The translations under genes and the position numbers were made by a program. Below are positions 2,458-63,437 of a stretch of 64,000 nt of DNA, piece by piece. Source of the stretch: Marsupella aquatica (taxonomy: Eukaryota; Plantae; Marchantiophyta); contig OZ316891.1 of the NCBI GenBank assembly GCA_973895155.1, positions 15,407,037 to 15,471,036 on the forward strand. Direction: 5' to 3'. Under the pieces are notes generated by a model. The model was not told where the DNA came from. It did not search any database and saw only the letters and a list, made by a program, of their open reading frames with translations. The stretch's first letter is position 1; every line of letters begins with the position of its first letter.

Positions 2458-3405
2458 CTACAACTGCAAAACCTGCAAAGTAGCACGGTGTCTTGAGAAA
2501 CTCTCCAAATGAATCACCTTGGTAAAGGCATCAGCGGGATTGAGCTTTCCATCAATCTTGACTAGCTCAAAAGTCTTATCAGACACTACTTGCCTAATAA
2601 AATGGTACCTATATCAATGTGCTTCACCCTGCTATCCATCACTTGGTTAGCAGCCAAGTGAAAAGCACTCTGACTATCACAGTTTAGAGTCATTTTGCCA
2701 TGCTCTAAACCCATCTCCGCGATCAACTTATCCAACCAAATTGCTTCCTTTGCTGCTTCTGCTGCTGCAACATACTCTGTTTCTGTAGTAGACTGAGATA
2801 TATACTTCTGCAAGGTAGATTTCCAATTGATACATCCTCCTCCAAGAGTAAATACAAACCTAGTTGTAGACCTCCTTGTATCCAGACAGCCTCCATAGTC
2901 AGAATCTACATAGCCAACTAACGTTCTATCTGATCTTGCATCAAATAGTAACCCATAATCATGTGTTCCCTTCACATACCTGAGAATCCATTTCACAGTA
3001 TCCCAATGTACTTTCCCTGGATGACATGAATCTGCTAACCTTGCCCATCGCTAGGGCCAAGTCAAGCCTAGTACAAGTCATCAAATACATCAGATTGCCT
3101 ACTGCCTTCTCATAAGGAATCTTAGCCATCAGACCTTTCTCCACAGCATCCGTAGGAGAGAAAGCCGATGATAACTTGAAATATGAAGCTAAAGGAATAC
3201 TCACTGGCTTACAGTTTTTCATGTTGAATCGTGCAAGTACTTTACTCGCATACTTGCCTTAACTCAAGCACAACTGTCCAGTATCAGAGTTCCTAAAAAT
3301 CTTCATCCCTAAGATCCTCTTGGCCTTACCAAGATCCTTCATCTTGAATTTCAGAACTCAATTTTGTCTTGAGTTTGTCAACCTCAGATTGATCTTTAGC
3401 CACAA
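2458..3405 (-). pseudogene. Copia A pol: RT C-terminus and RNase H, with frameshifts/stops
   Basis: EFKMKDLG, LMYLMTCTRLDL, GYVDSDYGG..DTRRSTT, SQSTTETEYVAA, CDSQSA..KHIDI and NPADAFTK motifs; stop at 2458-2460. Confidence 0.9.
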
Positions 3406-4782
3406 AGTGGTGGACCTAGCCACCAAGCGCCCTCACCAATCCCAACACTTGCGCCTAAGTGCCCTTGATGCCCGAACGCATCCACGAAATACCTCGAGCA
3501 AGCATCCAAGTGCCTCTAGCACCACCTGCGGCCACTCCCATACGAAGTCGCACTTGCTCACCTACACGACCGCTACTCAACGGTCCTCACTATCTGCACA
3601 AACAACCAGCACCTCGGTAAGTAACCCCTCCGGATCTAGAACTCGCCCAGTCTAGCATCCTAACTCAAGCTCAACAGATGTTGGTAAATAGGTCAGCGAT
3701 AGGTCCTCCCGATGCCATAAGCTGAAACCAGAACCCACACCCACTATCCGTCCAGGACAGCTCCTTCCTTGGGCGCGGCCCGGGTTCCCCCTCGTACCTA
3801 TCCATCACCAACTGACCGCACTGACCTCAGGACATGATCATGGCCCAAATAGCGTAGCTTGTCCTAAAGCTCGTCCCAAGCTTGTCTCAACACGCCAGGA
3901 CCAGAACGGCCCCAACTCTAACACCCACTCCCGGTTCGCTCCACTGATGGTCTAGGGACCGAGCGCCCTTGGGACTCAACCTCCATACCTACTTGGCCTT
4001 GCCTCCCCAACACAAGCTCTCTTGGGAGGCTGAACACGGCTTGGCTGCTGTTCGGCAGGATTTGGCAAGCGGGCGAGCTAACACCCGCAAACCACGAGAA
4101 CCCATGGCACCCCCAGACCCAGCTGAGCTCAGGAGGGCGTAGCCTTTCTCAAGAGCTTTCCAGCGCACCTAAGAAGTCTTCCAACGGACTTCTCGTTGGG
4201 AAGATATCACCATTTTTGTTTGGCAGTTTCCCTTAGTGTCGCGACCGCCGCGGCTCACGACTTCGGCTCGGCCTTAGCCCCCCAGGGAGACACCACTCCC
4301 CTCATATATGTTTCTGGAGACCTGCCACCCCCAGACCAACTTTGGTCCCTAAACATTTGGCCCCCAACCCGGATCCCATCGCGCATAATGGGCGCGCCAC
4401 CAACTGGCAATGCCCATAACTTTCTTGATAGGCATCCGCAAGCGGAGTGCCGTAGCACGTTGTGACCGGGCTGACCCCTGGACATGCCTAGGCCCTCAGG
4501 TCTGATCGCCGCTCGGGGCCCCCGACCGGCCCAACCTGGATCGGGCCACAACTTCTGCCAATGGCGTCAACTCCATTGGCCTTGGGCCCAAGAGGAGCTC
4601 ACTCTCAAGCCCTCAGAACTCAAAGCCCCTCCGACGGTCCGGATGGCCAACCTCGAGCCCGACCCATTTCTCCTTGACCCTACCAGCCGTAGGCTAGTCC
4701 AAGTCCTTAGTGTGTGTCCTCAGCTTGACCCCTTGCCTCGCTAGTGCCACGTCTCATTGCCCACAAGTCTCCCCATGCTAAG

Positions 4783-5079
4783 TGTAAGAAACCGTCGGCT
4801 CCAGACTAGACAGCAATGCGGAAACATGAGAGAGACTCACTCAATCAGACGCTACACCAACAAGACACCCCGAGTGGAGAAACTCCTGAAGGCTCCATAG
4901 CAAATGAGAGTACATGTGAAGAATGAGGGAGAGAGTGCTCTCCCTCCAGCCTATACCTCCAAGGGGGCCAAGATGAGTGGGCCTAAATAAGCAGATCTTA
5001 TCCAAATATAATCTAGGGTTAAAACTAACCCTAGTAAGGCCAAGCTAACTATGTTAGGAACTAGAGTCAATTCCTAACA
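4783..5079 (-). repeat. Copia B 3' LTR (297 bp)
   Basis: TG..CA ends. Matches 11103-12072 minus the MITE, with 7 differences counted by eye, all transitions. Confidence 0.97.
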
Positions 5080-5146
5080 ATCTCCACCTTGACTCAAGTT
5101 CACACAATGAGTCAGGTGATATACAATATGTAACTAAGTAACATAT

Positions 5147-8100
5147 TTACATAGTCACTGGTTTGGCCCTAACATTAATAATATCCACACAATGACTAAA
5201 GCTACTGGTAGGTAAAACTTTGGTAAGCATGTCTGCCGCATTCTCCTCTGAAGCCACCTTCTCCAGAAACATCTGCTTCGTCTCAATCACCTCACGAATG
5301 AAGTGATAACGAATATCAATGTGCTTTGTCCTGGCATGGAACACAGGGTTCTTAGCCAGATGCAAAGCACTTTGACTGTCGCACAACAGCACCGGTCTTT
5401 CAGGTGAAAGACCCAGATCACTCACCAATCTCCGTAGCCAGATCAGCTCCTTGGTTGCCTCACATGCAGCCATGTACTCAGCCTCAGTAGTAGACAAAGC
5501 AACACAAGATTGAGTTGCCGACTTCCAGCTGATACAACCTCCACCCAGCATAAACACATAGCCTTTAGTAGACTTTCTGTTATCCAAGTTACCAGCATAA
5601 TCTGAATCTACAAAACCTTCCAACTCTAATGTAGAGTCTGCTTTACTGTCAAATAAGATCCCACAATCTAAGGTACCTTTCAGATACCGCAAAACCCACT
5701 TCACTGCTTCCCAGTGAAGCTTACCAGGATTTGCCATAAATCTGCTCAAAATGCTAACAGCATGGGCAATGTTAGGTCTAGTGCATGTCATTGCATACAT
5801 CAAACTACCCACAACACTATCAATGGGAACATGTTTCATCGCCAGTCTATCACTCTCACTAGAAGGGCAATCATCCTTTGAGAGTTTAAAGTGGGAGGCC
5901 AATGGAGTACCAACTGGTTTTGCATTCTCCATTCCATACTTGGCAAGTACCTTCTCCAAATACTGCCTCTGAGACAACCATAATTACCTTTGCTCCCTGT
6001 CACGATGAATCTCCATCCCTAGTATCTTCTTGGCGTGACCCAAGTCCTTCATTGAAAACTCCTTACTCAACATTGCTTTCAGATGGGCAACATCAGACTT
6101 ATTCTCAGCCAAGATCAGTATGTCATCCACGTACAATGCCAGCACAATGTAACCAAAGCGTGAGTAATTCTCCACCTCCTTCATGTAAATACAACAATCA
6201 TGTTCACTTCGTGTGAACCCCTGAGATAACATGAAGGAATCAAAACGCTTATTCCACTGTTTGGGACTCTGCTTCAATCCGTATAACGAGCGCAAGAGCT
6301 TACACACCAAGTGTCTGGTCTTCTCATCAATAAAACTTGGAGGCTGAGTCATATAAATCTCCACATCAAGCAATCCATGCAGGAAAGCAGTAATTACATC
6401 CATCTGATCTAACTCAAGATCATAGAATGTCACAATCGCAAGTAAAACACGGATAGTAGCGAGTTTGACAAATGGTGAGAAAATCTCCGTGTAGTCCAAG
6501 CCCTCCTTCTGGGTGTACCCTTTGGCCACAAGGCAAGCCTTGTAAATGCCATCCTGCTTCTTCTTGTACAACCATCTACACGGAACCAGTGTTTTCCCGC
6601 GAGGCATGTCAGTTAAGCGCCAAGTTGAATTCTTCTTCAAGAATTCATTTCCTTCAACATCGCCTCCAACCACTTATCCTTCTCTGGAGAGGCCATAGCT
6701 TCTTCATAGCTAGAGGGGTCTCCATCTTCAGTAAGCAAAACAACACCGGGATCATCGTCATGTTCAACAACATGAACACGAGGATCTGCAAAACCAAATC
6801 TATTAGGGGGTTGGCCAAAATTGGCCCTGGTGGAGCGCCTTGGTTGAGGAATTGCTCCTCTACTAGAGGGACCAACAGCTTCCTCATCACCACCAAGCTC
6901 CACCGTAGTGGGTTCCTCCACCTGTTCCTCCTGAATATCCTGGGGTCTTGACAACCATTCTTCGTCAAAAACAACATTTTTGCTCACAACTACCTTGCAA
7001 TCGATAGGATCCCACAATTTATAGCCCTTCTGCCCAGGACTAAAACCTAGAAAAATACATTTCTTAGACTTGGGATCCAACTTAGACCTGTGTGTCTGCT
7101 CAATGTGAACATAGGCAGCACAACCAAAAACTCAGAGTCTAGAGTAATCAGCAGGTCTCTTATACCACAACTCAAATGGAGTCTGCATCAACTTACTACT
7201 ATGCGGTGACAGATTGTAGACGTATGCAGCTTGGTTGACAGCTTCAGCCCAAAAGTTGTTGGGCAACTTGGACTTACATAGCATGTTGCGTGCTTTCTCC
7301 AATAATGTCCGATTCAACCGTTCTGCAACTCCATTCTGTTGCGGGGTCTCCGGTACAGTGTAATGACGCTTGAGGCCAAGGTCCCGACCAAATTGATCAA
7401 ACTCATTGGACTTATACTTGCCACCGTTATCGGACCGAACACACTTCAACTCCTTCCCAGTTTGTAGCTCTACCATGGCTTTCCACTCCTTGAAAATCTC
7501 AAAGACTTGAGACTTCTCCTTCATGTAGTACAACCAACACATTCGAGAGTAATCATCTACAAACGTCACAAAATATCTGGCTCCACCCAACGACGGCTCC
7601 GGCGCTGGACCCCAAACATCCGAATGTACATACTCAAGAATTTCATGAGAATGGTATGAACTAGAACTGAAACTCACTCTCCTCTGCTTGCCGAAGATGC
7701 AATCTTCACAGAAAGAGAGTTTACCAGATTGAGCGCCTTGCAACAAATCTCTGTTTGCCAAGGCTGCCAATCCTTTACCGCTCAAGTGCCCCAACCGTGC
7801 ATGCCACAAATCTATAGCTTGTGTGCGACCAGATGTTGAGGGTGCTTCAATTGAAGCAGCCGTAAATGACTCTATAGCAGATGTTGCCGCTGCATCCGAA
7901 CGTTCCACCACAGAATCCACATGCTCCACTCTAGGAGCAATGATATCTCCTTCCAAGATGTACAAATTATTCTGCCGTAGCGCCTTAATCAAAGATACAT
8001 CATCTTTGACGACAAAGAGCGCACCATCACGTGCAGTGAAATGAGATCCACCGGCTTCCAAAGCACCAAGAGAAATCAAATTCTTAGAGATGTCTGGTAT

Positions 8101-9412
8101 GTGTTTGACTTGCGTCAGTGCTCGCACAACACCATCAAACATCCGGAATTTGATAGTCCCCATGCCAACAATCGCACATCGGACTCCATTTCCGATTTCC
8201 ACAGTACCAGTACAAGGTTGGTAAGTGGAGAAATACGATTGCGTTGGACACACGTGATAAGAGGAACCCGAATCCAACATCCATTTATTGTCATATACAG
8301 AATTCACTGCACCAATACATAGCACTTCAGTAGCATCCTCATTATCAGCAATCACAATACCAGCCGACGATGAGGACGCACCATTGGAAGCAGGACGCTT
8401 CTGCTTCGATAGAGAAGGACAATTCCACTTGGTGTGGCCCTTCTCATGGCAATTCCAACACTGAACTTTCTTACTACGGGACTTAGATTTAGACGTACTA
8501 TGTGATTTAGATCTAGACTGATCCGTAGTACGCTCCGTCAATCTGCCTCTAACCACTAAGGCAGCAGACTCATTGTCACGGCCAGAAAGTTGTCGCTTGC
8601 CCCATTCTGCAAGAACGGTAGCCTTCACCTCATCCAATTTCAACGTAGACTTGTCATGTGTGATGACCGTCACCAATGTTGAATAGGTCTGAGGAAGCGA
8701 CATCAACAAATGCATCGCAAGATACTCATCGGGCAACTTGTCTCCTGCCGTGGTCACCTCGTGCACAATCTCATCGAAGAGACTGAGGTGATCACGCATG
8801 TTGCCACCATCCTTCAACTTCAACCTGAACAGCCGCTCCAAGTGATAAATGCGAGTAGTCAACGAAGTACTCTGGTATAGCTGAGTAAGCATATCCCAGA
8901 TCTTCTTGGCATTCCGATCCATCCCCAACACGTTCTTGAGAATGTTGTTTGCCAAGAACAACTCAATTGTGCTACATGCCTGCACTGACATGTCCTCCCA
9001 CTCCTCATCTGTTAGATTCGAGGGTTTCACTCTAGTGAGGGTCTTCTCAAGACCTTGCTGGATCAACACATTGGTCACCTTTCGAGTCCAAGTGATAAAT
9101 GCGAGTAGTCAACGAAGTACTCTGGTATAGCTGAGTAAGCATATCCCAGATCTTCTTGGCATTCCGATCCATCCCCAACACGTTCTTGAGAATGTTGTTT
9201 GCCAAGAACAACTCAATTGTGCTACATGCCTGCACTGACATGTCCTCCCACTCCTCATCTGTTAGATTCGAGGGTTTCACTCCAGTGAGGGTCTTCTCAA
9301 GACCTTGCTGGATCAACACATTGGTCACCTTTCGAGTCCAGAGGCTGAAGCTGACCTTCCCGTCAAACTTCTCCACCTCAAACTTTGGCGCTGCAAGCTT
9401 TCTTGAAGTCAT
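5147..9412 (-). pseudogene. Copia B gag-pol polyprotein, inactivated
   Basis: KFEVEKFDG (gag), CWNCHEKGHTKWNC zinc knuckle, WMLDSGSSYH protease, WHARLGH plus HSDVWG..RSDNGG..QNGVAER integrase, YVDD RT, RNase H. Lesions: 250-bp duplication in gag, stops at 7132 and 5984, frameshift near 6640. Confidence 0.95.
8837..9340. repeat. 250-bp tandem duplication in Copia B gag
   Basis: tccaagtgataaatgcgagtagtc starts at 8837 and 9087. TCCA microhomology at 8837, 9087 and 9337. One mismatch seen between the copies. Confidence 0.95.
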
Positions 9413-11102
9413 TGATGCTGCCACAAACATAAAGGAAATACACAACCGAAATACCTCCACCCAAAAATTCACCAAAAATTGAAAGTTGGCGAAAGTGGAA
9501 ATGGAATGCACCGCCGCGTAGCCTGCAAGGTACACTGCCAAGATCTGAAAATAATTCGGCGAAAAACTTCTTCAGCAAAAACTTATTCAACCCGGACCAG
9601 AGGGTTTTGACCCCCCGTCAGGTATCTTAGGTCCTGAAAAAATTTTGCAACAGCAACGCACAAATCAATTTCACTAGCCCGTGCTCAACTCCCTTGAGTA
9701 TCCCCTTGCAAAGTGTCGCAAAAAAATTCTGCCTCGACGACCGATGAAATTGAAAATTTCAGTCAAAAATTAGCTCTCTGGAAAAGTATCTTTTCCAGGG
9801 AATCAAAGTACAGTCAAAATGTACAGCAGAAAGAACGTGGAGCTAACACCTGTCCGATTGGAAAATAAAAGATCCAAACACGGAAGGAAAAGAAAAGAAA
9901 ACAAGTAAAAACCCTTTGGCTTTTACAAAAAAATTAAGAACAAAAAGACTACAATCGTCCTCCCGGCCTTCAATTTCTTTTCAAAAAAAATACTCTTGCA
10001 CATAGGGTCGCGCGCCTGCCCATCTCCTTGTTCACCTATTTATGTACGCTGTACCTAGCAGAGTACAGGGATATATAATACCCCCTCGTACCCCCTCCCA
10101 AATCTGTATTGTGTAGGTACAGTAGTACCTTTTGTGTCCTTGGCCACCCACCTGATGCAAGCCTTAATTAAAGGCTCCAAAGTGAAAGGAGCCTCGTATG
10201 CTCCCCCTCCTCACTTAAAGTACAAGCATAGGGCCTCGTGCCCATGTTAATAAGTGCTCCCTAAGGAAAGTAGTATGCTCGCTTCCCCTTTCCCCTCCTA
10301 TTGCTTCTGCATAGGGCAATGGCCCCCTTAAAGCTCCCAAGAGAAGGGAGCTTTGAACTCCCCCTCCCCTCACTTTAAAACTGTACTTATAGGTACGATT
10401 GTACCTGCACAGACGTAAGGCTGTGCTCTAGTACCTCATAGGGCCTTGGGCCAGGGGCTCGACTTTCTCCTCTGCTCCTCCTTCAATCCTTTGTATTCCG
10501 AGCCCTCCTGGCTCACTCGCGCGCATAGGGCAACGTGCCCGGGCAATAAAATCTCCCTTTCGCCCTCTCTCCGCACATACGCAAAGAAACCCGTCCGCAC
10601 CGCCGTCTTTTGTTGTGAGGCGGCACAAACAAAAGTATATGAAAAGAAAAAAAATTGCAACATCGGGCCCTCAACGCACGACCTTTTTACAAAGAAAACA
10701 ACTTTTTTCGGCCCCACACAAGATTAAGTCGAAACATATACAAGCCATAACCTAGAGCATCAAGCTCTAAACAGCAACCTCAATCTACAAGATTACTCGG
10801 TACACCAATGATGAAAAGCAGTGAAACCTTCACCAAAACGTAGTGTCCACCGACGCGCATAAGAGATCGCTAGACTGTCCTCTTGACAGTACTTCAAAGA
10901 ATAGAGACACATCCGACACTCCAGGCTGAAGTTTCAATCGGGAAACCGTCACTGTATTCACGAAATCTTCAACGTGAAATGACCAGTGAAACAATCACAC
11001 AATCATCGACGATGATTCAATCTTCCACCACAATCCAACACAACGAACGCTCTCATCACTGCCCAAGCCACCAAACCATGAACACGAAGCTTTGATACCA
11101 CT

Positions 11103-12072
11103 TGTAAGAAACCGTCGGCTCCGGACTAGATAGCAATGCGGAAACATGAGAGAGACTCACTCAATCAGACGCTACACCAACAAGACACCCCGAGTGGAGA
11201 AACTCCTAAAGGCTCCATAGCAAATGAGAGTACATGTGAAGAACCCTGGGCCCCCAGCCTTTGTAAACTAAAGAGGTATACGTGCGTACACCCCCCTCCT
11301 TAGTACCCCTTATTATTTTTGGAAGCCTATAAAAATTTCTCTTGTTATTCTTAAAAACTTAATTTTGGAGAATAAATCTGCCCCTTTGAGATATTATAAT
11401 TTCACATTTTACACCATTTATGAAAGCCTTGAAAAGTTATAAATTCATCATTTGCACACGGTTTTAAAACTGACGGGAGTGTTTTGGAAGGGTTTTGGGT
11501 ACATACATTTTTGTGTTCGTGACCCTTTAACCCCAAACTTCAACTTTGGGGCATTTTTGAACCACACGGCAGGGTAGTCAGGGTTCAAAAGCTCCAAAGT
11601 CCTAAACTACTCTGAATCATAGATATTGCAAGCATAATTATATGTCATATACACATGTTCCAATAAAGGGTGGCCACAAGGACCAATCCTATTGTGACGC
11701 GTGTCACATCCATATTACATCACCTCTTGAAGCATATTAACTTGGGCAACATTTATATAAGCCTATATTAGTTAGAAAGGGTTCTTTGAATAAAACCATC
11801 CCTTGATATTTCTAAGCCAATTATAAAAATTAATCTCAAATCAGATTTTTTGCACCCTTCATCCGTTCGCACGTCCAACCCATTATTAATAATGCTGGGG
11901 GCCCAGGGGTGAAGAATGAGGGAGAGAGTGCTCTCCCTCCAGCCTATACCCCCAAGGGGGCCAAGATGAGTGGGCCTAAATAAGCGGATCTTATCCAAAT
12001 ATAATCTAGGGTTAAAACTAACCCTAGTAAGGCCAAGCTAACTATGTCGGGAACTAGAGTCAATTCCTAACA
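11103..12072 (-). repeat. Copia B 5' LTR interrupted by a MITE
   Basis: 970 bp = 297-bp LTR + 665-bp insert + 8-bp duplication. Confidence 0.95.
11244..11908. mobile_element. MITE, 665 bp, perfect 15-bp TIR, 8-bp TSD
   Basis: TIR ccctgggcccccagc / gctgggggcccaggg. TSD GTGAAGAA at 11236-11243 and 11909-11916. The empty site is visible in the sister LTR. Confidence 0.95.
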
Positions 12073-12625
12073 CTAAGTCCTCCCCGGATGGCCTATCCGG
12101 GCCTGGACCATAAGGGAGCTCGGCGTCAGAGTAAGCGACGCCGGAGCTAAGTGTTAAACCACAACTAATTATATTTAAACTTTGGGTGACCCGGAGTTAA
12201 CATACGAAAAATGCGATAGTCGCGTTTGCGGACGGGCGCTCATCCGTGACCCTGCGATCGCCACTCACAAATATCTCATCCATTCACGAAATCTGGCAAT
12301 CTACGGCTCAAAATGACGCTCTTTCAAAGATCTACGGCTGACAAAAATCAGCACTCAAAAAGCACCCAAAATGAGCTAGAAAAACAAGAAAAACGAATGA
12401 AGCATTTTGATTGGTTTAGGGAGGAAATTTGAATTTTGAATGTTCGGGCAGGACGGGCAGGGACAGGTGGCTTGTGGAACTAGCGGGTGAAAGGTAAGGG
12501 GGCGACGGGGGTAGTGGGCATTGAGCAGGCGCTGACCGGGTTGCAATGGTTGAGGCCGCAGGAACACCCTGGCCTATTGCGCAGCTGATTGTTCAATTAC
12601 AGTTCTTGGTTCATTAGTAACGAAG

Positions 12626-12697
12626 AGTCCCCCTATGCCATTGGTTAGTACATTCGCCTCCGAAGCAACAGGTCCTGTGTTCGAACCTTGCAGACTG
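12626..12697 (+). other. Degenerate tRNA-like sequence (possibly Arg-CCG derived) or SINE head
   Basis: A-box-like tgccattggttagt, loop cgc-ctccgaa-gc and B-box-like gttcgaacc at tRNA spacing. Stems are poorly paired. Confidence 0.4.
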
Positions 12698-13174
12698 CGG
12701 TTCTGTTGCGCATTTGCTTTTGTCCTATGTGGGAACTATTTGTAAATCAGCTGGGTACATGGCAGCCGATGTTTTTAGGGTTTACACACTATAACCCTAA
12801 TTCCCATGGTTTCCGGCCCAACCTCACTCCATGGGGCAACAGCCTGGGGTAGAGGGATTGTGCAAGGAGGAGCAACCTTGTCTCATTCTTCATTCCTCAC
12901 TTTTGCACACAATCTATCTTTACCACCTCCGGTTGTCTTTTGCTGCTTACTTGCTTTCATTGCTTCTTAGGTTTTTCTATTGCTCCTCAACCCTTACTCT
13001 ATCCATTTGGTTGTTACATTTCTTGTTTTGCTGTATTTTTGTAATTTTCTTCATGTGAGTGACAATCTTTGGTCCTTCACCGGGTTTGGCTTGGCATCCG
13101 GTCTCCATTTTTAGGTTAGATTTTTTATAGCTAGGCTCCACATATCTAGGGTTTAGGCTTTGGGGTACAGTAGT

Positions 13175-16100
13175 ATGAGTAATGGGGCCCAGCCTCCTGA
13201 TCTTCCACATGGGAGGCGGAAACGCCCTCCGAGAGGGGGTGGTCCACCTAGACAGTGATACCCGAGTGATGATATAGACTATAAGAAGCGACGGAGACCG
13301 GATGCCAAGCCAGAAATCCGGGTCCCACTTGAGAGGTGGGATGAGTGGGAGAAGCTTAGATCTTTGTTAGGACAGGATACCACACACTCTACTGTTGTGA
13401 CATGGTTAGCGAATTTGTCCCAACCTAGAGTTCAGGAGCTCCGCGCATGGCGAGCAGCAGAGGCGAGGCAGTTTCAGCAAGAGAGAGACAGGGGCCAGGC
13501 TTCACAACCACCACTTCAGGTTGGGACACTACTTCATTTCCCCAAGTTTTGCTAAATGTTTAAGGTCTAACTACTAGGTTTATGTTGTTTTAGATGCAAA
13601 ACTATTGCTTAGGGTTTATGTTCATTCCTGTAAATTTTACCTCATACTACTCACATCCAATAATGACAAAACAAAATATAAACCTACCTTCCTAAATGTT
13701 CCTAGGGTCTAACTACTAGGGTTATGTTGTTTTAGATGCAAAACTATTGCTTAGGGTTTATGTTCATTCCTGTAAATTTTACCTCATACTACTCACATCC
13801 AATAATGACAAAACAAAATATAAACCTACCTTCCTAAATGTAAAACTATTGCTTAGGGTTTATGTTTTGCCAAAAATTCCTGTAATATTTACTTCTTTTG
13901 CATGCAAAACTATTGGTTAGGGTTTGGGTTTTTTCCTGAAAAGTTTACCCAGACTACTCACAACAAGACATATATGAATAAAATTGAAACATTGTACTCT
14001 GGTCTAAGTACTCTGGTTTCTATACTCTTTCATTCACAATTATTAGTATGATTGCTTTTACTGACATTCTTTATACACTATATATTATTGGCTAGGGTTT
14101 TATCTATTTTTTGTAATTTGTAGGCTGCAGGCAGGGCTGCATTGGATTCAGATCTTGAATTTGATGTTGACCTCGAGGAGCATATTGCTGAGCAATATGC
14201 ATCAGATGCAGAAGACGAAGCACTTTATCAAGATGATGACCCAGATGCTCTTGCAGCTTTGGGAGCAAATGACATTGTGGATGAGGAAACGACGGTATGA
14301 CTCTTGCCTCTTACATTATGTAAGAAAAAATTGACTTGGACTACAAGTTACACAATGTCTAACATGCATTTGTGGGGTTCTTTTGTCAGGAGGCATTCAA
14401 TGTACCAGACTCCCAGCCTACTGGACCATCGCAAGAGGCAAACCCAACACCATCTCCACTGGCCAGCACTGGGCCTTCTCATATTCTTGACTCTCAGCCT
14501 ACAGGACCTTTGGACCCACAGCCTACTCGTAGAGCAACACCCCGTATGCCAGCGACAGTAGCGTTCTTTGATCGTGAGTTGTTGGGTACATTTGTTGATC
14601 GGCTACTCCCTCGGTGTCATATACATGGTTGTTTGAGGACACCATCAGTTCAGCGAGTGAGAGAGTTACATCAACTCTGGTCAATTCACATTGGTTGTGG
14701 GGAGGATGGACACAATTGGACTTTTGTTACAGGGGAGAATGAGCCTGGGAGGAGTTCTCCTATGATTACACCCAGGTTGTACCATTCCACCCTTTGCTCC
14801 AGCTTGACCTACACCTCCTTGGCTGCTGTTGCCTCACATCTAGGATTACGTGTCCCTACAGCGGCTCATTGGCATGACTTTCAAAGTGGCCGTGGGCGAC
14901 CACGAGGTGGATGGATAGCAGCTGTCAAAGAAGAGTGGGTTGAAAGTAAAAGGCGCATGTGGGAGGAGTTGAAAGACAACATTGACCGGAGGCGGACAAC
15001 TGAGACAGGTTAGTGATGAATTTTGTTATGGTACTTGAGGCTCAATGACTTATTGGCTTGACCAGGTTCACTTGATGTTTCTTACATTGTCCACTTCCTT
15101 TGGCTTATGACAGATCCTGGATTAGTAGTTTATTTAGATACCCGATGGGATTCATCTAGGAGCGGTTTTCATGGTACCACGTCTATTTTGAACGCTGAGG
15201 ATAACAGAGTAATTGAGATGGTCACAATTACTAGGAGGGAGGAGAGAAATGCCTGGTACATGGAGGATAGGGGTACCAAAAAGGCATTAGATAGCTTGAG
15301 AGAGGCAGGGATATCTATCATGGAGGTCATTCATGATGATAAAGCCACTATTGATAATATTGTGGAGGATATGGGGATTAGGAACCAAAAAGACTTGTGG
15401 CATAAGGCAAAGAACCTAGTCAAAAAGTTTGTGGAACAGATGGTGAGTGTCACATACACTGTTACTATTGACATTGATGCTGCCACGTCTCGTTCCCAGC
15501 TCCAAGCAGTTACTACTAAGAGGTTGCAAGATTGGTTGAAAGCACAGGGAGTGAGAGGGTACTCAACCCTCAGGAAGGAGGCCTTGGTCCATAAAGTCGC
15601 CGACATGCGTGGGTTGCCTAATGAGGAGCTAGTACATTTTCAGACTCGTGGTTTAAAGTATCCAGAGTTGTCACAACATAACTTGGCTACAAAGTTCAAG
15701 ACCTGGTTCTATGTATGTTGCCGTCGTTGTAAGACCAGGTAACTTTCATGCATTGTCCTAACTTTGGATGACTTCTTGGATTTTAATTTTATGTGTAATT
15801 GTTATGATATGGGTTGAGTTTAGGGTTGAGAATTGAGTTATTAATGATTTTTGTTTTGCCAGTTTAGGAAATGCAGAGTCATTGGCCTTTGAGTTGGGAA
15901 ATTGTGCCGATCATTGGGCTGGTGATCATGCATTATGTGCAAGACTATCTGATCGACCTTGTCAGCATCTTGGGAACCCTGGAGCCATTCAGCTTGACCG
16001 TTATTATGAGAGAGGTAATAATTGTTGTTACTTATTGCAAGTGTGAATTCATCTGGATTTTATTATATGGTGACTTTATTCACAAATAAGTATACTTATT

Positions 16101-16507
16101 CATCTGGATTTTATTGTACATGGTAATTTAATTGGGATATTTTGCTTACAGGTTCTGAGACTCATGTAGCGATGCAAAAGTTCATGAAGAAGTATTTTAC
16201 TCCCACAAAGATGAGGTTTTATACCATGGCTCGGGAGAACTTCATGTCCGAGACCTACCACTCTGTGATGGGCAAGTATGCCATCAAGCGTATTCATTTC
16301 TCGGCTAGTCATGAGGCTCGCTTATGTTGTACTGCCTTGGACTGGAATGAGAATATTCGTCGGCATGTGTGGAAGGTATATGATCGCACGCCTGTGAACA
16401 CAGCTGTTAGGGAGCGCCCTGGTTGAACGCGAGTACTGGTGGATCGGACCACCAGTTGGAAGGACCGAACGAGTGAGCGCATTTATGGAGTATCACCTCC
16501 GGCTTAG
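13175..16507 (+). pseudogene. Spliced Kolobok-type DDE transposase (6 predicted exons; two TGA codons probably from CGA)
   Basis: Approximate exons 13175-13519, 14124-14294, 14390-15008, 15113-15738, 15863-16014, 16152-16507, with GT-AG introns. Motifs: YLDTRWDS (D1), YMEDRG, VIHDD (D2), KDLWHKAK (DxxH), HWAGDHALC, SETYHS (E), KYAIKR..F...ARL..ALDWNEN. Stops at 13256 and 16424. Confidence 0.8.
13553..13920. repeat. ~142-bp tandem repeat in intron 1 of the transposase
   Basis: aaaactattgcttagggtttatgtt recurs three times; two nearly full units plus partial copies. Confidence 0.85.
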
Positions 16508-17660
16508 AACCCAGATTAAAGTATTGAGGTAACTGAATTTTCCCAGTGGCAATGTAAGAAGATTGTTATGTGTTGATGATAATTGAAATTAAATCTTTAT
16601 TTGGTATAATTATGTGGGTCATGTTCAGGATAATTGAGCTGTGGTCAACATAGTGGTCAGTATACTTATGGAGTGGTGCCTCCATGAAAGACCTCGGCTA
16701 ACATACTTCATGTGAGTATAGGCAATAAAATTAGTTGATTGAAATAGGTTTCATTTTACTGTAAAGATGGTTGTCATTGTGTACCTCTAAAATGGTTGTC
16801 ATTGTTGCAGGGGTGATTCTCTTGAGGAGGGCCGAGACCTGACTAGAAAAATGATGACCTGACACCAGTAGTATTGGGCTTTCTTTTAGAGCTAGTACAA
16901 GTTGGGACTCAAGGCAAGAGCTATGGATGGAGCTTTTGACTCTCATATGACAGCTAAACAAAACATTGAAATTTTTATTTTGTCTTTTTGGTGTCATTTT
17001 GTGAGTGATGTTGTAACTATGAAGATGCTTATTGTGGTCAAACAAATCTGAAGGAGTTTATTCTACTTTGTTGTCTTGGTGTTCTTTTGTGAGTGATGTT
17101 GTAATTTGAAGGTGCTTATTGTGGTCATACAAATGTGAAGGTGTTTATTGTGGTAGAACAATATTAGAGACTACAAGGAGCCAAGTTTGGAGGGTGCCAT
17201 TTAGAGACTCCAATGAGCCAAATTTTTAGGGTGCCATTTTAGAGGCTCCAATGAGCTGTAACTACAAGGGGTAATGCAATGCAATTTGAACATAAAACAA
17301 TGAGTGTTTGGTGATAAAAGTTGTTTGTCATGCACAGTATTCGTATTCAGACATAGTAGAGTTTACAAAAAAAGTGACTCAAGAACCCTTTCTGTGGTGT
17401 AGCATGTACTACCAAGTTTTGAGAGGTGCAATGGGAAGGAAGAAATGAAGATATATAATATACAAGGGAGAATGTAAACAAGATAGCAAAAACTGTTTCT
17501 AATGCAAATTTGTTATTGTGTTCCTGTAACATGTACTCCCAAGGGGAATTGAACCCCTTATGTTGCCAACCAGCAGGAGTTGTATTCTGCAAAAAACTTT
17601 ATTAGTCATATCAAACATTGAAACAAAATCATGAAGTATGGCAGAAGCCTCTCTAATCCC

Positions 17661-18059
17661 CTAATTAGGAAGGAATCCTACGAATTCCTCTCCTTCATCA
17701 TGCCAAGTTGCTTTCACAGAAGCTTCAACCGGTTCAGGAAACTTAGTTCTATCAGCATACCCTGCTACATATGCCAAGTGAGTGTAGACTTGGTATCTTT
17801 TTCGTCTCATAACAGTTTCAACATAACTATATGCAGCGCACATGATCAACTGTTCAATTGGGACTACGGGGTTGAGATCATCGTGACACTCTGTAACTGC
17901 GGTACAAAAATCTGGAAAATCAGCGTGGACCTCTTGCACAGTGACAGTCCGCATAGTGGGTGGAGTGCCCTCAACATCACTAGGATCCTGCCAGGTGAGA
18001 TTGTAGATCCCATTGCCATTTTCAGTCAACATGGCTCTCAATTTTCGTGGCGGGGCCAT
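17661..18059 (-). CDS. KolX-like accessory protein (~132 aa; P2X7 ballast/Zcd-like C-terminal motif)
   Basis: Likely start MAPPRKL at 18059, just after a candidate splice acceptor. The C-terminus RRKRYQVYTHLAYVAGYADRTKFPEPVEASVKATWHDEGEEFVGF fits the R.R..AY......G...R...P.CV...IR..FP.....Y.GF pattern. It is convergent with the transposase. Confidence 0.7.
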   Translation of the reverse strand: MAPPRKLRAMLTENGNGIYNLTWQDPSDVEGTPPTMRTVTVQEVHADFPDFCTAVTECHDDLNPVVPIEQLIMCAAYSYVETVMRRKRYQVYTHLAYVAGYADRTKFPEPVEASVKATWHDEGEEFVGFLPN

Positions 18060-19620
18060 CTTCCTGACACAATACCAATCATATTCACATGTCACTTGCT
18101 GCTCTTGACCAACATTAGCAACGAATGTAAATTGAAAATGAGACCCTGTTGTCACGGCAAAAATAGCAGCATCAACACCAAAAAATCTCACAGCACTTTC
18201 AACAACTGAAATGGCAGCAACAGTGGGGAGAAATCCTCGAAGAAAGCTCATAGCCAAAATCAGAGCACCAAGAGCAGAACTCCTGGTAGCACTACCTTGC
18301 CACTGAAATCCAACAAGCAACAAAGAGAAATCCACAACACCAAAGGCAGCACCAAGACCTGCAATGCTCACAACTGAATCGCTCCAACATCCGAGAGAAA
18401 TGCACAACAACAATTGCAACATAGAAATCTGAAATCCTCACAGCAGAGAGCGCAACATAGACATATGAGAAACTGCAGCAACTCGCAGCTGAAATTCTAT
18501 GAACAGAAATGGCAGCAATAGCAGAAGAAATGAAGCACAAACCTGAGCAAAGAATGATCAGGCCCAATCGGTATCTCAAACTCGGGCAAAGCTCGGGCAA
18601 AAAGCTCACGCACTCGCAGCAAGAGCATCCAAATCGTAGCCTCAACTCCTGGAGCAAAAATCTGAGTAGTATATTGAAAGGGGAACTCCACCCAGGCCAC
18701 AATAGAATCGAATGAGCACAAGCAAGGCTCACAAACAGCAGCACAGGCTCTGCATCTTCCTGTCGAGCTGAAGGGCAAGAAACAACAACAGTTCTCTCCA
18801 ATTTGAGCTGAAATGATCAGGAGAAATCGAGACAAAATGATGAGGAGAAATGAATTGAAAAACGATCAGCAACCAATAAGCTATGGCATCACAAAGCATA
18901 GCAAGCTTGGCAGCAAGGCAAGCTGCTTTGTTTCCCCATGCTATGGCAGCGAGTCCAGCAGTAGACAATGAGTGGGAGGAGCAGCAAGCAAGCGAGTTCA
19001 GCAGCAGGCAAGTAGCGAGGATGGCTGCAAGGTAAGCAGGATTCAATAAGATAACGAGGTTGGCATCGAGTTGAGCAGCTGGCTATGGCAGACCGGATGT
19101 CTTGGGAGCGGTGGCAGTGAGTCGAGCAGCAGGTGAGCAGCAGGCAAGCAAGTCAAGCAACAGGAGAGCAAGTCGAAAGTAGGCGAGCAAGTCGAACAGC
19201 ATGCGAGAAAGTTGAGCAGCGAGGTTTGCAGCAAGTCGAGGAGTAGGCTCGCAGCTAGCTATGGCCGCCACTAAATCTTGGCAGCAATGGCAAGTCGAAC
19301 GCGAGCGAGGCGACGAGGAGGCGAGTGAGTCTCACAGCATCTCTTGGCAGCGAGGTTGGTGCTCGCAGCTGGCTATGGCAGCCAGCCCATCTTGGCTCCT
19401 TGCAGCAACGGCCGCTGCTACCAAGTGCTAGGGCTGGGAGGGGGGCTGCAGGGAGGGGGGAGCGCTGCAACGACCGGGAGGGCTGCACCGGGTGAGGCAC
19501 GGGTGAGACCAGGGCACCCTGCGCTCTGCCTGACCTGGGCAGAGTGGCCCGTACGCGCGGGCAGGCTTGGGGGGCCTTTATACCCCGAGTGGTGGTTTAA
19601 GGTAGTCGAGTTCCACGACT

Positions 19621-20440
19621 CACAATCAGCATGTCATCCACATAGATAACCAGAATGATGAAACCAAATACATCATTCTTGTCTGATTTCGTATACACAC
19701 AAGGATCATACATCATCCTTGTAAAACCTTGAGCAAGCATGAAATCATCAAACCGCTTGTTCCACTGTCTAGGAGATTGCTTCAATCCATACAAGGACTT
19801 GAGCAATCTACAAACTAAGTTCTCTTGGCCCTTCTTCATAAAGCCTAGTGGCTGTCTCATGAAGATCATCTCTTCCAAGTTGCCATAGAGAAAAGCAGTA
19901 ACAACATCCATCTGATCCATCACCAGACCAAAATATAGAACAAGTTGACACGAGATTCGAATTGTGGAATATTTTGCCACCGGTGAAAAGACCTCATTGT
20001 AATCCACTCCTTTCTTCTGAGTGAATCCCTTGGCAACAAGCCTTGCCTTTTAGATCTTGTCTCCACCCTCTGAAGGACTGTCCTTCAACTTGTAAATCCT
20101 GCAGCTTGCTCCTTTCCTTGAGCCTGAGGCTCATCAAGAGAGACTTCTTGTACAGCCAGTCTGACGCATCTTCCCGCAGTACTTCTCTCTTAGAGCCTTG
20201 AATATTGACGCGCAATCCGCATAATCATCATGCTTCTTGATGATGTGCGGCTTGAGATAAAACATCACTGCATTGACAACAATCACCTGCTTTTATCTCC
20301 ACTGCTTTTCTGAGATCTTCTCTGAGATCTCCTCTTCTCCATCATACTGTTCTCGCGAAGAGAGTAGATGAAATAAGCCCATGGCCCGTAGAACACCCTT
20401 CACTTGCTTCTCCCATAGCAAGTAATCAGTACGACCATCG
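19621..20440 (-). pseudogene. Copia A gag N-terminus fused by deletion to the RT N-terminus
   Basis: gag (KFEVEKYDG..LWEKQV, LYKKSL) runs directly into IYKLK..KARLVAKGF..DYNEVFSPV..QMDVVTAFL..YVDD near 20098. Zinc knuckle, protease and integrase are absent. Confidence 0.88.
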
Positions 20441-27008: not shown

Positions 27009-27352
27009 TGTTGAGCATAGACGATATTTGCAATGGCAAGCCCATGAACCATCCAACGCACAATAGTCGACACAGAGAGATACGTGGTTCACCTCCACAT
27101 GAGGCTACGTCCACAGGAACACACAAGAGCTTTACTGCACTCTAGGCCGAACGGCCATACCAAGCATCCACAACACAAGCTCTCCCTATCTCTCAACTAG
27201 CTCCGTAACAATGAGCCTAAGTTCCACGAGGGTCTGGCATCAGCCCTGGCTTAATACACTACAGCACTACCGCTAACATTAGTTAAGTCCTAACCTGAGT
27301 TAGACTAACTGTGGTTAGCTCATGAGTCACAAGACTAGAACAATATCTAACA
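27009..27352 (-). repeat. Copia A 5' LTR (344 bp)
   Basis: tgttgagc..tctaaca next to the iMet PBS. The same family recurs at 63438-64000. Confidence 0.92.
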
Positions 27353-62294: not shown

Positions 62295-63437
62295 ATTCCA
62301 AACACACTCTGCACAACGAAATCAGATGATCATGAGCTTGGATGAAAAATCATGTGGGTGTGAGTTCGTTCGTTTGTTGATCTTGAATACATCTCCTTGC
62401 AGATGACTCTCAGGTGGATGACCTTCAAGAATCACACACGACTCCGTTCGTCATCTACTATAATTCTTAGGACGGGGGATGCTGGACCTTCAGCTGCTGG
62501 ATCCTACCTCTGCTGGATCCTACCTCGATAGGCTTTATCGATGGGCTCTATCGATGGGCTTTATCACAGAATCCGAAAACTTAGTCGGGATCTCTTGAGT
62601 CTGAAATTTGGGTTGATTTTCAGGCTTAAGGGAACTATGATTCTGGATTTTCAAGCTAATACCTTGATTTTGCATATCTGGTACTTTCATTGGTTCACAT
62701 TAGAGCATCTGCAACGGTGTACTCTAATTCCTTAGCGTATACATTGAATTACGTTTTCTAGTACAATGGATGTATATAGTAAGGATGACATGCCAAAATG
62801 CAAGCCCAATGGTCATAGGGGTTTACCTCGTGATATAACTTTAGATACTAATTGTTAGATCTTGTTTTACCTCCCGCTATACCTTTGGATACTAATTGTT
62901 TGATCTTGGATAACCCAGGAATCAATTCTGCATTGAGTCAGTGCTCTATATGGTCATTCAATAGTAGTTTAAATAACCAAAAAACCTACTATAGTAAGCT
63001 CACAACTGAAATCCTTCCACTAATCCATTGGGGTTGCCTTCTTTCTCTGCCTTATTGGGTTTGGTCAACATAGCTTACACTAGACTAACCTAGTAACTGT
63101 TGGAGGTGCTCTTTATTTAAGGTGTTCTTTTTGCATGAATTAATAATTTTGTTTAGCAAATGTACAATTTCAGGTGAAAGTTTTGTTTGTGAAAAAACTT
63201 GAGGTTCTAGCAATGCTGAACTGACACAAGGTTTGTTTATGTTGTGAGCTTGAGGTACTTGTTTTCTAACTTGTTGGTTCAGGTAGTTTTTTAGCTTTCA
63301 AGTGCATTTTTATAAGGTGTTGTTAAAGTGCAACTATTTTTTAGGATTTCCAGGTGCATGTTTTTCACAAAAATTTCTGCTTTTCTTTCAAGAATAATTT
63401 TTTACACAAAACAACTTTGTTCAATTTTTGTCCACAT

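Follow-up and report, generated by a model that had tools for sequence, protein, structure and literature searches.

The question raised by this locus is whether the interval at positions 3401 to 19625 of a 64,000-nucleotide stretch of the liverwort Marsupella aquatica (contig OZ316891.1; the whole stretch is called the window) is a single transposon of the Kolobok lineage with an unusual target-site rule, or a set of elements inserted one into another. The interval interrupts a Copia gene and carries a transposase gene and a small second gene. An earlier note, made from the letters of the window, had allowed two readings: either a Kolobok that makes nonspecific 5-bp target duplications, or a TTAA-specific Kolobok lying inside a noncoding element of about 1.5 kb with AGT..ACT ends. 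Our analysis supports the nested model. The interval is best described as four nested insertions within the host Copia gene, in which an outer 1,477-bp repeat is separate from a Kolobok-like element, and the outer layer is probably a solo long terminal repeat (LTR).

The layers were resolved by comparison of the window with itself and by direct inspection of the sequence. Logan contigs from four of the five listed sequencing runs (X1 to X4; two studies) were aligned to positions 3200 to 19900 of the window. The results below come from the best-supported rows of this alignment, which are the best 24 of 4,686 loose ends and the best 15 of 444 joints. A second contig alignment, for the Kolobok-like element, contributed the best 24 of its 352 rows. 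The window itself may derive from the best run.

Outer boundary of the interval

The sequence CACAA is present at 3401 to 3405 and again at 19621 to 19625, and the DNA enclosed by these copies begins AGTGGTGGACCTAG and finishes CGAGTTCCACGACT. When the first 14 bases of the two ends were compared, 11 were inverted-complementary (binomial P ~4e-5). The 5-bp duplication, the AGT..ACT ends, and the imperfect terminal inverted repeats (TIRs) are thus all present as the earlier note had described them. Its further claim, that the insertion interrupts a reading frame, was confirmed across the empty site: deletion of 3406 to 19625 restores the Copia reverse transcriptase (RT) frame ...YVDDMLIVAKDQSEVDKLK (YVDDMLIVAKDQ), and joint 3400>19621, which skips the whole insert, was found in 3, 4, 5, and 6 contigs of X1 through X4, which derive from further members of the host Copia family. 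The open reading frames (ORFs) of the host lie on the minus strand, with the 3' part of pol (RT/RNase H) at 2586 to 3405, broken at the CACAA site, and the 5' part of the RT at 19626 to 20049.

As a control for chance, the entire window was scanned for AG..CT pairs flanked by a 5-bp duplication in which nine or more of 12 bases match in inverted orientation. There were 28 such pairs, four of which, including the CACAA-flanked pair, reached 10 of 12. With this many pairs in one window, a short inverted match next to a 5-bp duplication is unconvincing by itself; what makes us accept the outer boundary as real is the restoration of the frame, together with the evidence of the contigs.

Copies of the outer repeat without the genes

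The outer repeat is noncoding and lies in three pieces: a main body that starts with AGTGGTGG (3406 to 4782), an 80-bp piece that ends in the TTAA target (12078 to 12157), and a final 20 bp ending ...CACGACT (19601 to 19620). The earlier note had proposed a search for copies made of these three pieces and lacking the genes, and such copies were found. Loose ends just before 3406 were present in 30, 82, 89, and 86 contigs of X1 through X4, with flank agreements of 0.39, 0.36, 0.35, and 0.35; this low agreement indicates that many loci with unrelated flanks begin exactly at AGT. At the other end, 51 contigs of X2 pass from 12157 to a consensus that agrees with 19601 to 19620 in 19 of the 20 bases, including a terminal GACT, and diverges beyond them. 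Joint 4777>12073, which skips an inner Copia, was found in all four runs (6, 6, 11, and 8 contigs), and the two-gene element is skipped by joint 12154>19599 in two of the four runs and by joint 12157>19603 in X3. The gene-less copies carry a single TTAA.

The summed depth of bin 3757 to 4313 was 261, 303, 373, and 523 times the median of 12 bins in the gene region of the Kolobok-like element in the four runs, although summed contig depth is not the same as copy number. That many loci carry gene-less copies holds regardless of the selection of rows, of the depth measure, and of the source of the best run. From the gene-less copies and the excess depth we conclude that the 5-bp CACAA duplication and the AGT..ACT ends belong to the outer repeat and not to the Kolobok-like element. 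The outer element is an independent, very abundant family.

Ends and target site of the Kolobok-like element

Inside the outer repeat, TTAA is present at 12154 to 12157 and at 19597 to 19600. The 7,439-bp element between them (12158 to 19596) has the ends ACCACAACT...AGTGGTGGT, inverted at 8 of 9 positions (P ~1e-4), and encloses both genes, just as the earlier note had observed. When three left TTAA sites were paired with the one right site, only the 12154/19597 pair was good; the other two gave 3 of 9. By contig depth the element has a low copy number, with a rough estimate of 8−22 other copies from the depth ratio, and further copies of the outer repeat lack it. It has the TTAA duplication of a Kolobok, at this one locus, and its ends are AC..GT rather than the 5'-RR..YY-3' of that group; because of these ends we refer to it as Kolobok-like and not as a strict Kolobok.

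In the second contig alignment, variants at 12254 and 12272 had from_end values of 101 and 119, both of which seem to trace back to 12154. These values, from a single column, favor TTAA over a shorter TA target. The corresponding values for the right end (33 and 37−38) point to about 19601 to 19602 but are ambiguous. An 8-base likeness between the left end of the outer repeat and the right end of the inner element (AGTGGTGG) was read as coincidence, because the bases run in opposite directions relative to the ends of the two elements.

These results bear on two other explanations. One is that the whole interval is a 16-kb element of the Kolobok lineage with AGT..ACT ends and nonspecific 5-bp duplications, and we consider it highly improbable. 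The outer ends do enclose both genes and are of the RR..YY type, and 5-bp duplications occur in the related KolobokP. Against this, at least 51 contigs join the outer pieces with no genes between them, the depth of those pieces exceeds that of the gene region by a factor of hundreds, an exact TTAA duplication flanks both genes, and other Kolobok-like copies appear, from the variant contigs, to end at 12154. If the gene-less copies were instead derived by internal deletion from a large element, TTAA would not have been left duplicated in the copy that has the genes. Three observations weigh against the nested model: the joints that skip the Kolobok-like element have short sides (22−23 letters) with 85% likeness, no loose ends at either terminus of that element were among the best rows of the second alignment, and the 5-bp duplication of the outer repeat is known from one locus. 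A giant Kolobok that follows a new target rule, the first of the two readings in the earlier note, is nevertheless refuted by the gene-less outer copies, and the second reading is the one that those copies and the depth support. The other explanation concerns the inner element, which might have a 2-bp TA duplication and AAC..GTT ends, and would then conform to RR..YY but not to the TTAA rule. At this single locus the letters fit that assignment as well as they fit TTAA. It is unlikely, since the sequence shared by the variant contigs seems to reach back to the first T of TTAA (12154), and since Kolobok is described as TTAA-specific.

Genes and relatives of the Kolobok-like element

The predicted transposase gene (13175 to 16507, plus strand) has six exons, at 13175−13519, 14124−14294, 14390−15008, 15114−15738, 15863−16014, and 16152−16507, separated by five GT-AG introns. 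The model has 755 codons, two of which (28 and 729) are premature stops, and these suggest that this copy has since died. The motifs YLDTRWD, IHDD, DLWH, and SETYHS are found at 385, 451, 472, and 670. Their order (D..D, DxWH, HW.GDH..C, SE..HS) aligns by eye with the Kolobok rows in Data S5 of PMC9587614, and the zinc-finger motif expected between DxxH and the last E is present as C..HW.GDH..C..C in exon 5 and in the relatives (by eye, against the same source). Judged by these motifs, the product appears to be a DDD/E transposase with the C/DxxH signature of Kolobok. Row KlNi of Data S5 is presumably Klebsormidium. An insert in the transposase is marked by SAP-like matches. Domain PF20700 fell below the cut-off in five of the nine Riccia relatives and was above it in one of 27 further relatives; in the window's own transposase exon it had no match.

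A first search with the transposase gave nine matches, all from Riccia sorocarpa, at 39−47% identity, and a profile search yielded 802 proteins with E<=0.001. Twenty of the 802 were looked up: seven were from Riccia sorocarpa, one from Calypogeia fissa, seven from Chara braunii, and three from Closterium, one was a cluster that has Pyramimonas and Prorocentrum among its members, and one was unnamed. Relatives of this transposase are thus present in liverworts and streptophyte algae.

The second gene (17661 to 18059, minus strand, 132 amino acids) is convergent with the first and has three relatives. By eye its C-terminal pattern is KolX-like and resembles piggyBac-2_GrCh_2p, one of the cysteine-poor KolX-like proteins of piggyBacs (PMC9587614). 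KolX proteins of the Kol0 lineage have a cytoplasmic ballast fold and seven zinc cysteines; the cysteine cluster is absent from the product of the second gene, which had no match in Pfam or among the PDB sequences. Its structural model (pLDDT 62.8) gave no Foldseek match at E<=0.001 and no match by VIA (best Z 4.8); Atlas matches were at 0.87 or lower.

Compared with a Kol0-type Kolobok such as Kolobok-1_XT (PMC9587614), the inner element is alike in its TTAA duplication, its DDD/E transposase, in which DxxH is present and a zinc-finger-like stretch precedes the last E, and its small convergent second gene with the C-terminal pattern seen by eye. It differs in having AC..GT ends, a SAP-like insert, and a second gene without the seven zinc cysteines, and its host is a liverwort, whereas the only plants listed in that paper are chlorophytes and rhodophytes. 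In a literature search that had Repbase and most subscription papers outside its scope, no description of a liverwort Kolobok was found. Kolobok is reportedly mentioned once in each of two repeat surveys of angiosperms and one genome survey. A term search for "Kolobok" gave 0 occurrences in PMC12885004 and in PMC11735767.

Three other features were noted within this element. A perfect 20-bp inverted repeat has its arms at 13087−13106, ahead of the transposase gene, and at 13293−13312, within exon 1. A tRNA-like stretch at about 12625−12700 was not called by ARAGORN or Rfam, and a tRNA-like fragment at 17533−17580 had weak Rfam matches (E 0.011 and 0.036); at the latter, contigs step back 52 bases.

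Identity of the outer repeat

The outer repeat is 58% GC, with a longest ATG frame of 86 amino acids and a TATA-like hexamer near 4301 to 4310; no poly(A) hexamer was found in it. A motif near 4150 may resemble noncoding stretches of plant LTR elements. The sequence features of the repeat suggest that it most likely represents a solo LTR whose ends are AG..CT, an identification favored because of the 5-bp duplication, the short imperfect inverted ends, the length of 1.5 kb, the lack of coding sequence, and the TATA-like hexamer. A retroviral-type integrase with a 5-bp stagger, joining CT-3' ends, would have placed the parent element, and recombination between its two LTRs would then have removed the internal region. 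Because the consensus of the 51 contigs also ends in ...GACT, the AG..CT end is a family trait and not the result of decay.

Plant LTRs are predominantly flanked by 5-bp duplications (10.1101/137141). The plant solo LTRs described there, including non-TGCA types, resemble the outer repeat in their 5-bp duplication, short inverted ends, noncoding sequence of about 1.5 kb, and high copy number, but differ from it in that the outer repeat has AG..CT ends and no parent element was found. LTR ends of the AGT/AnT type, replacing TG/CA, are known from the Drosophila errantiviruses gypsy, ZAM, and Idefix (PMC5408687, PMC3601003), and the same terminal trinucleotides are found on the outer repeat. Those insect elements, however, use palindromic 4-base targets (TATA, CGCG, ATAT), whereas the outer repeat has a nonpalindromic 5-bp CACAA duplication in a plant genome; its copies elsewhere have unrelated flanks. 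No evidence was found for descent of the outer repeat from errantiviruses.

Several points count against identification as a solo LTR. The ends are AG..CT and not the TG..CA of LTRs. Among 50 plant genomes, seven noncanonical LTR types were reported, all starting with T, and this invariable first T (10.1101/137141) is absent from the outer repeat. No second copy was found in the window, and no paired copy, internal region, primer-binding site, or polypurine tract was found in the flank consensuses, counts that are dominated by unique flanks. Short imperfect inverted repeats with RR..YY ends also fit a nonautonomous DNA transposon. The outer repeat could be a cut-and-paste element, either large and MITE-like (miniature inverted-repeat transposable element) or an analogue of the solo LTDRs of KolobokP, mobilized in trans by a DDD/E transposase with a 5-bp target duplication. 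We regard this as a real but clearly less probable possibility. The 11 of 14 inverted terminal bases are in keeping with it, as are the very many solo copies with unrelated flanks and no visible internal region. KolobokP LTDRs, moreover, have imperfect TIRs of 11−18 bp, RR..YY ends, many solo copies, and duplications of 3−5 bp, with some families at 5 (Table S1 of PMC9587614). On the other hand, LTDRs are about 450 or 660 bp long compared with 1,477 bp here, and KolobokP has been reported solely from animals; for the outer repeat, no partner with a His-Me nuclease was seen. The repeat has no subterminal repeats, and a word-7 blastn comparison gave no similarity between it and the noncoding ends of the inner Kolobok-like element. 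We retain the solo LTR as the preferred identification.

Mirror symmetry of the flank consensus letters at positions 6−9 was seen in two of the four runs, both from one organism; it was too weak and was not used. A 20-base pattern had two matches in metagenome contigs, both in GC-rich bacterial-type genes with no further similarity, and these were attributed to chance. For AGT..ACT ends as a Polinton trait there was no support in the sequence or in the literature search. That search, with the scope given above (Repbase and most subscription papers outside it), found no description of an AG..CT LTR in a land plant.

Remaining layers and surroundings

An inner Copia retrotransposon (4783 to 12072, minus strand) and a 665-bp insertion in one of its LTRs account for the rest of the interval. 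The inner Copia has TG..CA ends, CTAAG at 4778−4782 and 12073−12077, gag-pol domains, and LTR copies that agree at 290 of 297 bases. A 254-bp tandem duplication (8837 to 9340, 99.6% identical) lies at the start of its gag. The 665-bp element (11244 to 11908), located by self-comparison, is noncoding, with perfect 15-bp inverted ends (CCCTGGG...) and the 8-bp duplication GTGAAGAA. There are thus three inner duplications within the interval: CTAAG, TTAA, and GTGAAGAA.

The order of events suggested by this arrangement begins with the outer AGT..ACT repeat, which would have entered the Copia gene with its 5-bp duplication and afterwards received the inner Copia and the TTAA-flanked Kolobok-like transposon. 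The latter would have been inserted by a cut-and-paste mechanism into a TTAA lying 20 bp from the end of the outer repeat, probably driven by its own DDD/E transposase.

Elsewhere in the window, a host Copia LTR lies at 27009−27350, and members of this LTR family are also found at 63432−63998, 27931−28211, and 43037−43246 (73−98% identical). A segment of about 5 kb (~21000−26400) seems to interrupt the host Copia leader, although no boundary was found for it. Within it, a minus-strand frame of 593 codons (22090−23871) had no match among 7,993 candidates and no Pfam domain at the cut-off. Three consecutive in-frame ORF pieces at 123−1466 match DUF7869 (PF25273, E 9e-31) and are probably another broken DNA transposon; duplicated stretches follow at 1561−2140.

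Discussion

The earlier note had held that either of its two readings would be unusual. That does not apply to much of what was found, because nesting as such is ordinary, 5-bp duplications are known in KolobokP, and AGT/AnT ends are known in errantiviruses. What remains unusual is modest: the AG..CT ends of what is probably a land-plant LTR, and the AC..GT ends of a Kolobok-like element in a liverwort.

The broader proposal has two parts: a land plant has, among its most abundant LTR families, one with AG..CT ends, for which the integrase would join CT-3' and not CA-3' ends, and a streptophyte Kolobok-like lineage with a SAP-like insert, found in liverworts, Chara, and Closterium, uses AC..GT ends at TTAA. 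The chances that this combined proposal is right or wrong seem to us evenly balanced. If it is true, the AG..CT family would be the first land-plant case found in the searchable literature. Should the outer repeat prove to be an LTR, the reported invariability of the first T of plant LTRs (10.1101/137141) would no longer hold, and a plant integrase would join a CT end, in parallel with the insect errantiviruses. The repeat would also be a very abundant family missed in bryophyte genomes by LTR finders that depend on TG..CA or other motifs. The inner element, for its part, extends Kolobok-like transposons to land plants and indicates that RR..YY is an unsafe rule for locating the ends of Kolobok-like elements.

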